NCBI GenBank assembly: GCA_044356295.1
Contig: JBIKWN010000006.1
Coordinates: 7,134 to 71,133 of the forward strand
Direction of reading: 5' to 3'
DNA length: 64,000 nucleotides
DNA from: Bdellovibrionota bacterium
Lineage (GTDB): Bacteria > Bdellovibrionota_C > UBA2361 > JBIKWN01
Part shown: positions 37,371 to 62,281 of the stretch, piece by piece
Numbering within the stretch: position 1 is the first letter of the stretch
Layout of the letters: every line of letters begins with the position of its first letter
Notes under the pieces: generated by a model
The model's database searches: none
Seen by the model: the letters and a program-made list of their open reading frames with translations, nothing else
What the model was told of the DNA's origin: nothing
Made by a program: the position numbers and the translations under genes

Positions 37371-37500
37371 AGACTCAACATATTACTCCCGTGCCCCCAT
37401 CACGAACAAGAGCTACAAATTAGAGGCACATGCCGATGAAAAGTTTTATATGCTAAGAAAATGACAATCGCTTAAACTTTCGCTAAAATCCCCCCTCAAT

Positions 37501-37574
37501 GCACTCGTAGCTCAGTTGGATAGAGCAACCGCCTTCTAAGCGGTGGGTCGGAGGTTCGAATCCTCCCGAGTGCG
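37501..37574 (+). tRNA. tRNA-Arg (anticodon TCT)
   Basis: Cloverleaf folded by hand. Acceptor gcactcg/cgagtgc. D-arm gctc-agttggata-gagc. Anticodon stem accgc/gcggt with loop cTTCTaa. T-arm ggagg-ttcgaat-cctcc. Discriminator g. Confidence 0.85.
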
Positions 37575-37790
37575 ATTTTTAGATTTTTTAGTGCTTTAGT
37601 TAGAGGGAGGATTCGAACCTCAAAACAACAAGGTCGAATCGTTCTAAGGTTGCGGTGCGTAGCAGCGCAGCCTCCCGAGTGCGATTTTTAGATTTTTTAG
37701 TGCTTTAGTTAGAGGGAGGATTCGAACCTCAACAACAAGGTCGAATCATTCTAGGGGTACGATGCGTGGCAACGCAGCCTACCAATGCCA
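37562..37790. repeat. Tandem ~109-bp duplication made of tRNA-Arg 3'-end fragments
   Basis: cctcccgagtgcgatttttagattttttagtgctttagttagagggaggattcgaacctc occurs at 37562-37620 and 37671-37729. Each unit carries a direct copy of the tRNA 3' 13 nt and an inverted copy of the T-arm. Confidence 0.55.
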
Positions 37791-53064: not shown

Positions 53065-53174
53065 TAAGATTATTGTGATCTTTCATCAGTAGACCGACAA
53101 ACCGTCAGCTATTAGAATGATCATTCTAGTAGCTATTTTTATCATATTTGGTTCATTGTTAACAGAAAAAAGAA

Positions 53175-53510
53175 ATGTCAGATAAAGTCAAAAAAATTAG
53201 GCGGGTACACCCATTCGGCTTTAGAGTCTTAGTTCAGGTTCAAGACCAGCCGGGAGTAACGGATGGAGGGCTTTTTATTCCTGAAACAGCCAAAAATACC
53301 ATGGCAGAGAGCATCCTTGCCCAGGTTATTGAGGTCGCGAGCGCAATGGACGACCACGGTCAAGAAGAGACAAATATCAGTGGGATTCCTCTTGGGGCGA
53401 CCGTTCTTATAGAAAAAATGGTAGGGGTCAAGGTTCCATGGGACGACAGAATCAGAATTGTCGATAGTAAGGATATTTTGGGCATTGTTCACGAAATGAG
53501 CCTTTCATAG
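53175..53510 (+). CDS. Divergent GroES (Cpn10)-like protein with no groEL partner
   Basis: Alignable by eye to GroES: IRRVHPFGFRVLVQVQ...TDGGLFIPETAK...IPLGATVLIEK..G..V......IVDSKDILGIVHE compared with IRPLGDRVLVKR...TAGGIIIPDTAK...VKVGDKVLFSKYAG.EV.......IL.ESDILAVIE. Confidence 0.5.
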   Translation: MSDKVKKIRRVHPFGFRVLVQVQDQPGVTDGGLFIPETAKNTMAESILAQVIEVASAMDDHGQEETNISGIPLGATVLIEKMVGVKVPWDDRIRIVDSKDILGIVHEMSLS

Positions 53511-53909
53511 ACACGCCCCCCACTTCCATGCCATTATAACCTCAAGAGTCACCTTAATCTTCATGGTGTATTCCTTTGACTTCGCTATATTGATTCTACT
53601 AGCCGATAATTTATCTAGAAAAACAATATAGTCCTCTTGCGCTGGATGTCTTTACAAAGACATATGAAAAGAGTCCTGTTTGCAAAGAGAACTTTTAGTG
53701 AAGTTCACTGAGTATAGCTCCTTAGTTCGGATACATTCTCTTGAGCGGCATATCGACTCTTGTAGGAATTCAATCCCTCACTCGGAGAATATATTTTATT
53801 TGTATTCACTTAACTTTCCCCATAAAGACCTAAGTGATGCAAAAGATAGATTTTATTTAATCATAACAAATTTAACCTGAGTCTTTATTGACTCTACCAA
53901 AGGAAAAAA

Positions 53910-55190
53910 ATGGCAAACAGCAAACAAACCGTTTCACACGTCTATTATGAAGTTGGAAGTGAGCTCCTCGCTAAACCAACTGCATTAACTCAACTTATTG
54001 AAGGAAGTGATGCTAGAACTACAATCGTATTTTGCAATTCAGCATCTGATACTGACCTCGTCGAAGTGCTACTTAAAAAACGTGGTGTTTCTGCTCAGAA
54101 ACTTATCGGCTCTGTAAGCCCAGAGAAAATCGCTCGTACTATTGAACAATTAAACAGCGGCGAAATTACAACAATTGTTGCAACTGATGCTTCTGCAAAA
54201 AATATCCCAATCGACTCTTTTAATCTTCTTATTAGCTATACCTCACCTACAGATGGTGATACTTATAAAAATCGATATGCTTCTGAAGATGGTTTAAAAA
54301 ACTTGTTAACAATTGCAACACTTGTAAGTCCTAATGATGCAGGTAACTTTGAAATCGTACAGCAAGCATTAGATGGTAAAATCACTAAAGCAGATCTTCC
54401 AACTGCTGATACATTACAAAAAGCAAAACTCAATCGAATCAAAGCTCAAGCACAAACTAAAACTGGTGCTGAAGAGAAGTATAAAGCTCTTATCGAAGCA
54501 ATCTTAGCAGATAAAGAAAAAGGATTGGTTATTGGATACTTGCTCGCTAACACTTTAGAAGTACTTCCTTCTCTTCAAGCTGCCCAGTCACGTGAAGAAG
54601 AGCATTACGACGATGAAGATGCTCAACCAAACTTTAATAGCTCACATCATGATAGAAATGGTGGAAACCGATACGGAAATGGTCGAAATGATCGTAACGA
54701 CCGACGTGGCAACAACGACCGTGGCAGAAATAACGGAAGAAATACCCGAGACAATCGTGGTGGACGACAACAATTTAATGACGCAGGTGATGATAGCGAA
54801 GCAAGTCTTCAAGCAAGAGAGGCAATGGCTCGAAATAAAAAACGTGCATTTACTCCTCCTCTGAAAGAAGCTCGAATTTACCTTGGTAAAGGGTCTGCTT
54901 CAGGAATCAGCGAAGCAACTATTAAAAAAATGGTTCAAGAACAAGGCGCGCTTACTGAAGGTGATGTTCGTCGTGTCATCGTTCGTAAGAACTATGCTTT
55001 CTTTGATGTACTTGAATCACAATCAGAAGACCTCATCAATAAAATTGATGGAACTTCATTGATGGCAAAAAAAGCAACTGTTATCTCTACACAGATTCGT
55101 GACCGAGGTGAAGATGACAATGAATTTGCTCCAACACTTGAAGAAGCAACTGCTCAGGCATCTGGTGGCATCGCTGCTAACGCCGAGTAG
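53910..55190 (+). CDS. DEAD-box helicase-related protein lacking the N-terminal ATPase domain: RecA2-like domain, R/N/D/G-rich linker and DbpA-like RNA-binding domain
   Basis: It begins exactly where helicase domain 2 begins: VSHVYYEV...TTIVFCNSASDTDLVEVLLKKRGVSAQKLIGSVSPEKIARTIEQLNSGEITTIVATDASAKNIPIDSFNLLISY. Motif VI is degenerate (YKNRYASEDG in place of HRIGRTGRAG). The C-terminus ARIYLGKGSASGISEATIKKMVQEQGAL...VRRVIVRKNYAFFDV resembles the DbpA RBD. Confidence 0.65.
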   Translation: MANSKQTVSHVYYEVGSELLAKPTALTQLIEGSDARTTIVFCNSASDTDLVEVLLKKRGVSAQKLIGSVSPEKIARTIEQLNSGEITTIVATDASAKNIPIDSFNLLISYTSPTDGDTYKNRYASEDGLKNLLTIATLVSPNDAGNFEIVQQALDGKITKADLPTADTLQKAKLNRIKAQAQTKTGAEEKYKALIEAILADKEKGLVIGYLLANTLEVLPSLQAAQSREEEHYDDEDAQPNFNSSHHDRNGGNRYGNGRNDRNDRRGNNDRGRNNGRNTRDNRGGRQQFNDAGDDSEASLQAREAMARNKKRAFTPPLKEARIYLGKGSASGISEATIKKMVQEQGALTEGDVRRVIVRKNYAFFDVLESQSEDLINKIDGTSLMAKKATVISTQIRDRGEDDNEFAPTLEEATAQASGGIAANAE

Positions 55191-56859
55191 ATCTTTTCTT
55201 TAATGAACTAAATGCACTCTTGATAGCATTCAAGAGTGCTTTTGATGATTGGCTTGTTTTTTTCGAAATTGAATCGAGAGCTACATTCTTTGTTAAAGAC
55301 CCTGAAGAGTCTAATTCACACTCGTACTCACCATAAAACGATAGAAAACTTCCTCTAGACCGTGGATCTCTTAAACCAGCTAATCGAATTATTGATGTTG
55401 GATTACTTGGTGAGAATCTATAAATTTCTGAGCCTTGTCCGTTTCTTCTCGCGGCACCGTATAAGACAACCTCACAACCAGATTGCACTTCACTAACATT
55501 GATTTTTAAAGTCAGCGATCCAGATCGAGACACTGAAGCTCCAAGAGAGATTGAACCAGCAGACTCATTTGGATTATCTGGACCAGGTGTTACTGTTGGT
55601 ACTGGACTCGGTGTTACTCCGTCTGATGGATTATTATCTACATCAAAGCACGACGGAGAAGAATTTAAATGATTTACTACGTCGGCAATACTCGCTGCAG
55701 AAAAATAGGTGCTGCCTGGAATATTTATGTAAGGCGCCATTAAACTCGATCCATCAGTTGTATCATGTCCAGCACCAAAGTTGTGCCCAATTTCGTGTGC
55801 AACTATTGAAGCATCAGCTGCAGGATGGAATTTTTGAGTTATACCAAAAGAGTAATCTTGGTTACTACAAACGACACCAACCCAAGCAAGACCAATAACA
55901 CCACCATCAAAGTCTTTCCCTGAAAATAAATGATATAAATCTGCTTGACCGAGTTGGTTATTATTTAATGTATAATTTTTAAATGATCCTAACAGCGTAC
56001 CAGAATTTGTACTGTTGAAAGGATTACCCACTGAAGATGAAAATCCATGTTGAGCTGAAATGACCAGTCGAATTCCTAATTGATTTTGATAAATTGCACT
56101 TGCTGCTGCTACAAGTGTTGCAATTTGCGCATTCGAATTAGCGCCGTATGTTTCATACCATTGTGGGTCAAATTCCGTTGCTATAGTAGCGTACTGCGGA
56201 TTTGATGGGCTAATCTCTCTTGAAGCGACAGCTTGAGGCTCCATCTGTGAACTTGAACGAGCTTGCTCTTGTTGTTCCATAGCAGCAGTTTGATGATCAT
56301 TATCGTGATTATCATTTCCACATGCTAATTCTTTCAGGGCAACAGTTGGAACAGATGATACCTTTGCATCTTTAAGTTGATGACCACTAATATAAGACTT
56401 AAGATAAAGTGCTCTACCCTTACCACGTGAAGCGTTCATGATTAAGTGCAAAACTGGTTTCCCATTCTTGGTTTTGCTATAGATACTGCCACCGAGAGAT
56501 AACTTCTTTCCATTTGAGCGAGCATACCCTTCAACAAGGGCGATATCTTTATCATCTTTCTTTGAAAATCCAGAATAATCTTGAATCGATGAATCCCAAG
56601 ATTTAAAAGTAATTTTATTTAAATAGATTGAATATCTTCCTGAACCTACAATGTGCGCTGAAAGCCTAATAGATTTTTTTAAATTTGAAAGTAACGGATT
56701 ACTTCTTCTGTGACTACCATCCTTAACTTCTGAAGCAATAAGCCTTAATCCATCAGTATCACCACTTATATTTGTTCTATACGGTGAAGCGTGGGCTGAA
56801 GATAAAGAAATCACTATTCCTAAAGCAATTCCAATTATATGGGAAACTTCTTTCTGCAT
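55177..56859 (-). CDS. Secreted zinc metalloprotease, reprolysin/adamalysin (M12B)-like
   Basis: Signal peptide. VAHEIGHNFGAGHD fits HExxHxxGxxHD. Confidence 0.75.
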   Translation of the reverse strand: MQKEVSHIIGIALGIVISLSSAHASPYRTNISGDTDGLRLIASEVKDGSHRRSNPLLSNLKKSIRLSAHIVGSGRYSIYLNKITFKSWDSSIQDYSGFSKKDDKDIALVEGYARSNGKKLSLGGSIYSKTKNGKPVLHLIMNASRGKGRALYLKSYISGHQLKDAKVSSVPTVALKELACGNDNHDNDHQTAAMEQQEQARSSSQMEPQAVASREISPSNPQYATIATEFDPQWYETYGANSNAQIATLVAAASAIYQNQLGIRLVISAQHGFSSSVGNPFNSTNSGTLLGSFKNYTLNNNQLGQADLYHLFSGKDFDGGVIGLAWVGVVCSNQDYSFGITQKFHPAADASIVAHEIGHNFGAGHDTTDGSSLMAPYINIPGSTYFSAASIADVVNHLNSSPSCFDVDNNPSDGVTPSPVPTVTPGPDNPNESAGSISLGASVSRSGSLTLKINVSEVQSGCEVVLYGAARRNGQGSEIYRFSPSNPTSIIRLAGLRDPRSRGSFLSFYGEYECELDSSGSLTKNVALDSISKKTSQSSKALLNAIKSAFSSLKKRSTRR

Positions 56860-62023: not shown

Positions 62024-62065
62024 AGCTAGTTTCGAATAGCATAAGAGTCTTCAGTTCAGTTCTAA

Positions 62066-62138
62066 GGCCCGGTAGCCAAGTGGCTAAGGCAGCGGTTTGC
62101 AAAACCGTCACGCGCCGGTTCGACTCCGGCCCGGGCCT
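62066..62138 (+). tRNA. tRNA-Cys (anticodon GCA)
   Basis: Acceptor ggcccgg/ccgggcc. Anticodon stem gcggt/accgt with loop tTGCAaa. T-arm gccgg-ttcgact-ccggc. Discriminator t. Very close to the E. coli tRNA-Cys arms. Confidence 0.9.
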
Positions 62139-62281
62139 ATTTCTTTTGTTTTTCTTACTATATTTTGTCCCGGGACGGAGGCGAACCTGCATTGCCGTAT
62201 GGCAATGCAAAATAACACTGTGACTCCGGATTACTGCGGAGCAGTAATTTTACCCGGGCCTATTTCTTTCAAAATGATTGT
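62130..62281. repeat. 17-nt direct repeat of the tRNA-Cys 3' end (cccgggcctatttcttt) at 62130-62146 and 62253-62269, with a degenerate tRNA-like segment between
   Basis: The second copy is preceded by gactccgg (a T-arm half) and a 19-nt palindrome attactgcggagcagtaat. Confidence 0.55.

Follow-up and report, generated by a model that had tools for sequence, protein, structure and literature searches.

DEAD-box proteins are usually regarded as clamps or unwinders of RNA powered by ATP, and few of them are known to be pseudoenzymes. Can half of such a protein, lacking its first RecA-like domain, still be a functional gene product? The question is posed by an open reading frame (ORF) on the forward strand of a Bdellovibrionota contig, at positions 53910–55190 of the 64-kb stretch analyzed here (the window), which we call the half-helicase gene. 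A first-pass annotation, made from the sequence letters alone, described it as a DEAD-box relative that starts at helicase domain 2, and offered two explanations: a truncated pseudogene that is still an intact ORF, or a non-catalytic RNA-binding pseudo-helicase. We conclude with high confidence that the gene encodes a catalytically dead DEAD-box pseudo-enzyme under purifying selection.

The gene was compared with two collections of relatives. Scanning one genome from each GTDB species for the family patterns yielded 16 loci, all from metagenome-assembled genomes (MAGs) of Bdellovibrionota/Oligoflexia, and 333 proteins at E ≤ 1e-30 came from a profile search across 1.84 billion representatives clustered at 50% identity. 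A second homologue search, with a 40-member alignment and word pre-filtering, recovered no new members. Individual loci and proteins are referred to below by their L and P numbers.

Domain Architecture of the Gene Product

The coding sequence (CDS) is complete, with an ATG start and 426 codons followed by a stop. An in-frame stop lies 6 codons 5' of the ATG, so the ORF extends no further at its 5' end. The assignment as a DEAD-box derivative devoid of the first RecA-like domain (RecA1) is supported by matches in Pfam, NCBIfam, and the Protein Data Bank (PDB), and the identical protein (P0001) is encoded on independent assemblies. A Pfam scan identified Helicase_C (PF00271) at residues 22–122 (E = 1.7e-11; 44.8 bits, cut-off 23.5) and the DbpA RNA-binding domain (RBD; PF03880) at residues 322–390 (E = 4.8e-8; 33.4 bits, cut-off 25.6), and gave no match to DEAD (PF00270) even at E ≤ 10. 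The NCBIfam models of DeaD, CshA, DbpA, SrmB, and RhlB aligned from model position ~211–227 onward with query residues 4–12 onward, indicating that the protein begins at the boundary between RecA1 and the second RecA-like domain (RecA2). These results agree with the first-pass annotation in placing the start of the ORF at the domain 2 boundary and in recognizing only RecA2 and a DbpA-type RBD. The equivalog level of the DeaD, CshA, and DbpA models was not reached, with scores of 57–59 bits against cut-offs of 524–989 (10–20 times below).

The AF2 model of the protein (mean predicted local distance difference test score (pLDDT) = 74) comprises a RecA2 domain at residues 8–160 (pLDDT ~90), a helical domain at 166–231, a disordered segment at 230–293 (pLDDT < 50), and a β-α-β-β-α-β domain resembling an RNA recognition motif (RRM) at 318–394. 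RecA2 (53931–54389) was thus delimited by Pfam, AF2, and Foldseek. In the Foldseek search against the PDB, the top matches were the RecA2 plus dimerization-domain fragments of Hera (RecA_C+DD; 3ear/3eaq; template modeling (TM) score 0.76–0.80 over ~213 columns), together with DeaD 5gi4 and Hera 3i32, and TM scores of ~0.8 were obtained for many RecA2 domains, including those of Hera, DeaD, CshA, and DDX6. The top PDB match by sequence was 5gi4, a RecA2 plus dimerization-domain fragment of E. coli DeaD, followed by Hera 3eaq/3i32 and CshA. A profile of the family aligned with residues 19–216 of Hera 3i32, covering the whole dimerization domain (E = 1e-21), and with residues 15–198 of DeaD 5gi4 (E = 4e-24). 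On the basis of the family profile and Foldseek, we assigned residues 161–231 (54390–54602) to a helical dimerization domain of the Hera/DeaD type, with a conserved YLLxNTLEVLPSLQ helix.

The remaining C-terminal part consists of three segments. A disordered linker (residues 232–297; 54603–54800), defined by AF2 and composition, carries an acidic patch and, after it, an RGG-like tract rich in R/N/G/D, in which residues 247–297 contain 24% R, 24% N, 20% G, and 16% D. All family members, L014 (the active orthologue described below) among them, have a linker rich in R, G, and D, whose length varies. A basic helix (298–307) and the DbpA-type RRM-like RBD follow (54801–55094), supported by Pfam, AF2, and conservation. 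When the RBD alone was searched against the PDB by phmmer, no matches were found, and the domain is recognized only through the Pfam profile and its fold. Both the R/N/D/G-rich linker and the RRM-like RBD had been predicted in the first pass. The protein ends with an acidic disordered tail (55095–55187; net charge −6), whose PTLEE sequence is conserved only in the closest clade.

Loss of the ATPase Motifs

The motif states were read from an alignment of the half-helicase protein with its relatives and canonical DeaD proteins. Motif IVa (QxxR), through which RecA2 contacts RNA, is gone, with PEKI in its place (SPEKIART). The motif V remnant, ATDASAKNI (54180–54206; canonical ATDVAARGLD), keeps T92, D93, and A96 and has lost the R-G pair. 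The motif VI remnant, YKNRYASEDG (54264–54293), aligns with the canonical YVHRIGRTGRAG; in the comparison of KNRYASEDG with HRIGRTGRAG, only Y119 and the first arginine (R122) are kept, and both distal arginines are missing. In motif IV, the basic residue that follows T in the canonical enzymes (NT-K/R) is substituted. The replacement of motif VI and the degeneration of the catalytic motifs, both noted in the first pass, were thereby confirmed. The Q motif and motifs I (AxTGxGKT), Ia, Ib, II (DEAD), and III (SAT), which belong to RecA1, are missing with that domain. Judged from its sequence, the protein is incapable of DEAD-box-type ATP binding and hydrolysis, as both RecA1 and the motif VI arginines are absent. 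RNA-stimulated ATPase and unwinding activities are likewise predicted to be absent, given the missing Walker A/B motifs and arginine fingers.

Other parts of the protein are highly conserved. The motif IV segment (TIVFCNSASDTDLVEVLLKKRGV; 54021–54089) follows a nearly invariant, family-specific consensus, FCN(T/S)(P/A)SD(T/A)D(L/F)VEV(L/M)LKKRG, within which C42, N43, S46, D49, V51, K57, and G59 are at least 90% conserved among 40 diverse members. Two further near-invariant, family-specific patches in RecA2 read HxYxEV..LLxKP and PLDxxNFHYxKK. In the RBD, R322, Y324, R359, and D366 are invariant, and Y362, F364, G326, G328, and G332 are at least 90% conserved.

Three of the orthologues, L008 (3057–4655), L009 (9998–11638), and L010 (2702–4279), carry an insertion of ~20 residues rich in P/A/E/S/G exactly at the former motif VI, and have much longer R/G-rich linkers. 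The position of the insertion suggests that the dead ATP site has turned into a tolerated insertion point in these proteins.

Selection on an Intact Gene

Relative to the 79%-identical orthologue L002, the ratio of nonsynonymous to synonymous substitution rates (dN/dS) was ~0.056 overall, and 0.027, 0.096, and 0.029 for RecA2, the dimerization domain, and the RBD, respectively; dS was saturated, and these ratios are approximate only. The ORF is intact at all 16 species loci (27–79% identity), each genome having one locus with the family patterns, and the RecA1-less architecture is present at 14 of them. Among the best 150 clusters at 50% identity, ~146 also contained intact orthologues.

The best 150 of the 333 representatives were classed by the length N-terminal to the family match, with a start within 80 residues of the RecA2 boundary defining the RecA1-less class. 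By this measure, 92 were RecA1-less, 3 were intermediate, and 55 had an N-terminal domain of ~200 residues. Motif I, DEAD, SAT, and HRxGRxGR occur all together in only 4 of the 55 long forms, which are also among the weakest family matches. The other 51 showed either weak similarity to the RecA1 hidden Markov model (HMM; 12–78 bits in 25 proteins) or none (26 proteins). HRxGRxGR is kept in only 2 of the 92 short forms.

A Shine–Dalgarno-like AAGGA (53900–53904) is located 5 nt before the ATG, and the block AAGGAAAAAAATGGCAAA is identical in L002. The ribosome-binding site, the start position, and an N-terminal leader are conserved among relatives. The GC content is uniform across the window at ~39%, implying that the half-helicase gene is native.

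These data bear on the pseudogene explanation, in which the ORF would be a decaying, 5'-truncated remnant still without stops, or an annotation artifact. Half of the ancestral enzyme is missing and its catalytic motifs are degenerate, as expected of a remnant. Against this stand the dN/dS value of ~0.06, the intact ORF in all 16 species, the conserved translation signals and leader, the family-specific invariant residues, the native GC content, and the recurrence of the RecA1-less form at 14/16 loci and in 92/150 representatives. The pseudogene explanation is therefore barely credible.

Absence of RecA1

We searched positions 53065–53960 in every frame with the RecA1 HMM (--max) and, by tblastn, with the N-domains of relatives, and found no relic of RecA1, in keeping with the first-pass statement that no DEAD domain lies in the 390 bp upstream. 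The RecA1 HMM detected no RecA1-like ORF anywhere in the window. Within ±10 kb of the 14 RecA1-less relative loci it likewise found none, and its only matches were the covalent N-domains of L013 and L014. In most relatives a divergent upstream gene starts only ~100–300 bp away, leaving no room for a hidden RecA1.

A sequencing error or frameshift that hides RecA1, which had been raised as a possible refutation in the first pass, was ruled out by the upstream stop, the lack of a relic, and the identical gene in the independent assembly L017 (Logan).

Could the ATPase instead be rebuilt in trans, with RecA1 encoded as a separate gene elsewhere? Such a split helicase is very improbable. The motif VI arginines, the R-G pair of motif V, and QxxR are gone from the RecA2 side; Walker A, DEAD, and SAT have disappeared from relatives whose RecA1 is still covalently attached; and neither the window nor the surroundings of the relative loci supplied a candidate partner.

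Proposed Replacement of a Helicase at Its Own Locus

The origin of the truncated form can be followed by synteny. Downstream of the gene, a convergent lytic transglycosylase (SLT), a PBP4-type peptidase S13, and a ferredoxin gene are common to the window, L002–L013, and L016. Upstream, a divergent WD40-like lipoprotein gene, LspA, and OmpA-like genes are common to L003–L016, including L014, in which the helicase motifs are complete. In the window sub-clade (200/200 bootstrap support), citrate synthase and a lone Cpn10 gene occupy the upstream side instead.

At L003–L016, the genes for the WD40-like β-propeller lipoprotein and signal peptidase II (LspA) lie ~1.3–5.5 kb upstream together with OmpA-like genes in tandem, and ClpX is encoded farther away. 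All four were absent from the 64-kb window, indicating a rearrangement breakpoint just upstream of the gene in the window lineage.

L014 (735 residues) retains the Q motif, AKTGSGKT, PTRELA, DEAD, SAT, QxxR, ARGID, and HRTGRTGRAG, and matches Pfam DEAD (154 bits), Helicase_C (106 bits), and DbpA; from these motifs, it is presumably an active enzyme. In genomic position it corresponds to the half-helicase gene, and it shares with that gene the signatures EVGGDLLAKP and SDTQLVEVLL, a long R/G/E/D linker, and the RBD, scoring 262 bits against the window family; it differs by its complete helicase motifs. In bootstrapped neighbor-joining (NJ) trees, L014 and the family were monophyletic with respect to canonical DeaD in 200/200 replicates, and the dead family excluded L014 in 181/200, placing L014 as sister to the whole family. 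The short forms were monophyletic in 0/200.

Between these extremes are full-length proteins with a dead and decaying RecA1. The N-domain of L013 (611 residues) is RecA1 according to hhalign (97.9% probability, 177 columns), and the motifs of the protein read GDAGTGKT, LDGV in place of DEAD, and HRIGNAGKSG. That of L011 (628 residues) is faintly and colinearly RecA1-like (E = 0.002) and keeps VVGTP. The N-domain of P0014 (679 residues) was not recognized by Pfam; its AF2 model is α/β (pLDDT 55–76), and the top PDB matches of the model were the two-domain helicase cores of CshA (5ivl) and DDX6 (4ct4) over 370–445 columns, the input alignment for the model having included canonical helicases. 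These three proteins are intermediates toward the loss of RecA1.

Parsimony on a tree of 135 representatives gave 22 gains or losses of the N-domain (16–28 over 50 bootstraps). As regain of the N-domain is implausible, this suggests that RecA1 was lost many times independently; the NJ trees are crude, and the count is indicative only.

The mode of loss is recorded in the N-terminal leader, MQ(D/E)(E/D)T(I/N/T)..E(Q), which is common to long-dead and short forms (P0053, P0054, P0079, and P0109 compared with P0042, P0047, and P0055) and also occurs at L005, L006, L007, and L016. Its retention in both indicates that RecA1 was removed by an internal in-frame deletion, which spared the start codon and the leader, and not by 5' truncation. 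The first-pass annotation had considered that full-length orthologues might exist here and that this copy had suffered a recent 5' deletion with loss of its promoter. The first part was correct, as full-length orthologues do occur at the locus, active in L014 and dead in L013 and L011. The second part was not: the deletion is old, in frame, and internal, the leader is kept, and conservation of the product contradicts a recent promoter-less truncation.

This acidic/polar leader stands before RecA1 in long forms and before RecA2 in short forms, and in the window sub-clade it is shortened to MANSKQT. It could serve as a degron, a binding peptide, or a translation signal.

The best explanation of these observations is that the RecA1-less protein took the place of the ancestral helicase at the same locus in these Bdellovibrionota lineages. 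Of the two explanations offered in the first pass, the non-catalytic pseudo-helicase is the one favored by the motif loss, the purifying selection, and the active positional orthologue. We further propose, tentatively and at slightly less than even odds, that this is the first recognized bacterial DEAD-box pseudo-helicase family, in which catalytic death at the base of a Bdellovibrionota clade was followed by many (crudely, at least 16) independent in-frame excisions of the ATPase domain, with RecA2, the dimerization domain, the linker, the RBD, and the leader strongly selected.

The same observations affect a different functional assignment, in which the protein is a regulatory subunit that pairs with a full-length, active Hera/DeaD-type paralogue encoded elsewhere, forming either a helicase with one motor and two RBDs or a dominant-negative complex. 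The dimerization domain is kept and constrained, and in vitro Hera_208-419 (RecA_C+DD) pairs with full-length Hera while RNA unwinding persists (PMC11850223). The half-helicase gene is, however, a positional orthologue of an active helicase and not an adjacent duplicate, and only one locus with the family patterns was found in each of the 16 genomes. Its dimerization domain diverges from that of typical DeaD, with no PF25399 match, and cross-pairing is not obviously favored; moreover, the long dead forms, which have both RecA domains, show the same evolutionary behavior. We regard such a heterodimer as unlikely.

Proposed Function

In our favored model, the gene product would be a functional, catalytically dead descendant of a dimeric DEAD-box helicase of the Hera/CsdA(DeaD)/CshA type, from which RecA1 was excised in frame, leaving the short leader, RecA2, the dimerization domain, the disordered R/G/N/D-rich linker, and the DbpA-type RBD. 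The dimerization domain would hold two copies in a stable homodimer, with RecA2 retained chiefly as its scaffold, as reported for Hera, and possibly also as a docking surface. The dimer would display two RBDs on flexible, basic, R/G-rich tethers and, with no need for ATP, would bind, anneal, or chaperone RNA in a bivalent manner; as for Hera and CsdA, structured RNAs such as rRNA and tRNA would be its plausible targets. Only the ATP-independent half of the CsdA/Hera activity would thus be preserved. We assign this dimeric, bivalent RNA-binding or chaperone mechanism a probability of about 0.5–0.6.

Each element of the model has a counterpart in the characterized helicases. Every Hera construct that contains the dimerization domain is dimeric, and this domain cannot be produced without RecA_C, which stabilizes it (PMC11850223). 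In Hera, CsdA, and CshA, RNA is anchored mainly by the RBD, which binds in isolation with a Kd of ~0.3–1 μM (PMC11850223). The RecA_C+DD+RBD fragment of Hera (3i32) is a stable dimer that binds RNA via the RBD (PMC11850223; PMC7566566). CsdA accelerates RNA annealing without ATP, an activity ascribed, probably, to its basic C-terminal part (PMC3590231).

Several points weigh against this model. Dimerization is deduced by homology only, and the Pfam model of the DeaD dimerization domain (PF25399) matched neither the half-helicase protein nor its clade, which implies that the domain is divergent. RNA binding by the RBD is likewise deduced, from Pfam membership and the conserved aromatic and basic residues. 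All family members derive from MAGs or metagenomes. In addition, the conservation of PSDxDxVEVxLKKRG and PLDxxNFHYxKK beyond the needs of a purely structural scaffold hints at a partner protein.

The last point leads to another role for RecA2, as a platform for an RNase, a degradosome component, or a ribosome-associated factor, to which the RBD and linker would bring RNA. The near-invariant patches FCNxPSDxDxVEVxLKKRG, HxYxEV..LLxKP, and PLDxxNFHYxKK are consistent with such an adaptor, and the structural neighbors of the protein include crystals of RecA2 with partners, namely SrmB-RraA (2yjt), DDX6-EDC3/CNOT1, and Dbp5-Gle1. Nevertheless, the patches are equally explicable as contacts between RecA2 and the dimerization domain or within the dimer, and even the active orthologue L014 has the patch. 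Furthermore, no conserved co-transcribed partner accompanies the gene, which is monocistronic between divergent and convergent neighbors with cell-envelope functions. As the principal role of the protein, protein docking seems improbable to us, to about the same degree as the heterodimer; it could coexist with the bivalent RNA-binding model, with which it is compatible.

Flanking Sequences

The half-helicase gene is preceded by a 399-bp spacer (53511–53909) that contains no RecA1 coding relic and presumably harbors the promoter and the 5' untranslated region (UTR). Such a length is unusual. Conservation with L002 covers the first ~95 nt of the spacer and a block at ~53703–53722 (CACTGAGTATAGC), and the spacer, which has no Rfam match, may be a 5' UTR element or promoter. 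Next upstream, between citrate synthase and the half-helicase gene, is the lone Cpn10/GroES-like gene (53175–53510, forward strand; 111 residues; PF00166), with no groEL beside it, whose placement is shared only with L002 and L001, the closest relatives.

On the downstream side, an ORF for a Reprolysin-like secreted metalloprotease (55177–56859, reverse strand; 560 residues) is convergent with the half-helicase gene and overlaps the last 14 nt of its CDS; the same overlap exists in L002. A terminator-like hairpin on the forward strand (55214–55239; 10-bp stem with 5 GC pairs, followed by TTTTGATGAT) starts 24 nt past the stop codon, within the final codons of the metalloprotease, and is a consensus match only. 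An Rfam search of the half-helicase flanks for structured RNAs or riboswitches returned only sub-threshold noise. The only RNA genes detected in the window by Rfam and ARAGORN were tRNA-Arg(TCT) (37500–37575) and tRNA-Cys(GCA) (62065–62139).

Relation to Known Proteins

The closest architectural counterpart is the 208–510 fragment of Thermus thermophilus Hera (PDB 3i32), with the same order of RecA2, helical dimerization domain, and RRM-like RBD. Hera itself is a complete helicase, in which RecA1 and all of the motifs are present, and its fragment is man-made, whereas here the truncated form is a natural, selected product. The two also differ in that the RecA2 motifs are dead here and that a 65-residue R/N/G/D-rich disordered linker takes the place of the short β-hairpin connector of Hera. 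By sequence, the closest characterized relatives are E. coli DeaD/CsdA (5gi4; NCBIfam PRK11634) and CshA (5ivl), which belong to the same dimeric subfamily and likewise carry a C-terminal RBD and a low-complexity basic region. The half-helicase protein is distinguished from them by its score (59 bits against a cut-off of 989) and by the lack of RecA1, of the ATPase motifs, and of a PF25399 match.

A conceptual precedent is Utp25/Def, a DEAD-box-derived pseudohelicase of the eukaryotic small-subunit (SSU) processome, whose helicase motifs are degenerate or dispensable although the protein is functional, and which was termed the first validated pseudohelicase in 2022 (PMC9539457). Utp25 keeps both RecA-like domains, is eukaryotic, has neither a dimerization domain nor a DbpA RBD, and shows no homology to the half-helicase protein beyond the superfamily fold. 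According to a 2011 survey that covered 1,848 bacterial DEAD-box proteins, the DbpA RBD occurred only together with DEAD-Helicase_C, except in a few RBD-only mini-genes (PMC3093544). These stand-alone mini-proteins of Treponema and Gemmatimonas resemble the present family in having the RBD outside a complete core (PMC3093544); they are mostly RBD, whereas the half-helicase protein also keeps RecA2, the dimerization domain, and the linker.

A full-text literature search found no description of a bacterial pseudo-helicase, or of a RecA2-only or RecA1-less DEAD-box family, and no relevant work on Bdellovibrio DEAD-box proteins. The half-helicase family, which is large, does not appear to have been described, and as far as seen it is confined to uncultured Bdellovibrionota. 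Its members are named "ATP-dependent RNA helicase DeaD" or "superfamily II DNA/RNA helicase" in databases; the DeaD label is wrong, and such helicase annotation misleads metabolic and functional inference in Bdellovibrionota MAGs.

Implications

The evolutionary trail from helicase to half-helicase is unusually clear at this locus. Active, dead full-length, and truncated orthologues at one position in one bacterial clade constitute a natural experiment, which opens to test what the non-catalytic parts of dimeric DEAD-box helicases do alone, how domains are shed after a function is lost, and why RecA2 cannot be dispensed with once catalysis is gone, as a scaffold of the dimerization domain or for docking of a partner. 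If the tentative reading of a first bacterial pseudo-helicase family is true, what a Hera/CsdA-type helicase does without ATP (dimeric RNA tethering, annealing, or condensate scaffolding) would be a cellular function in its own right, one that can take over the locus of the helicase itself.

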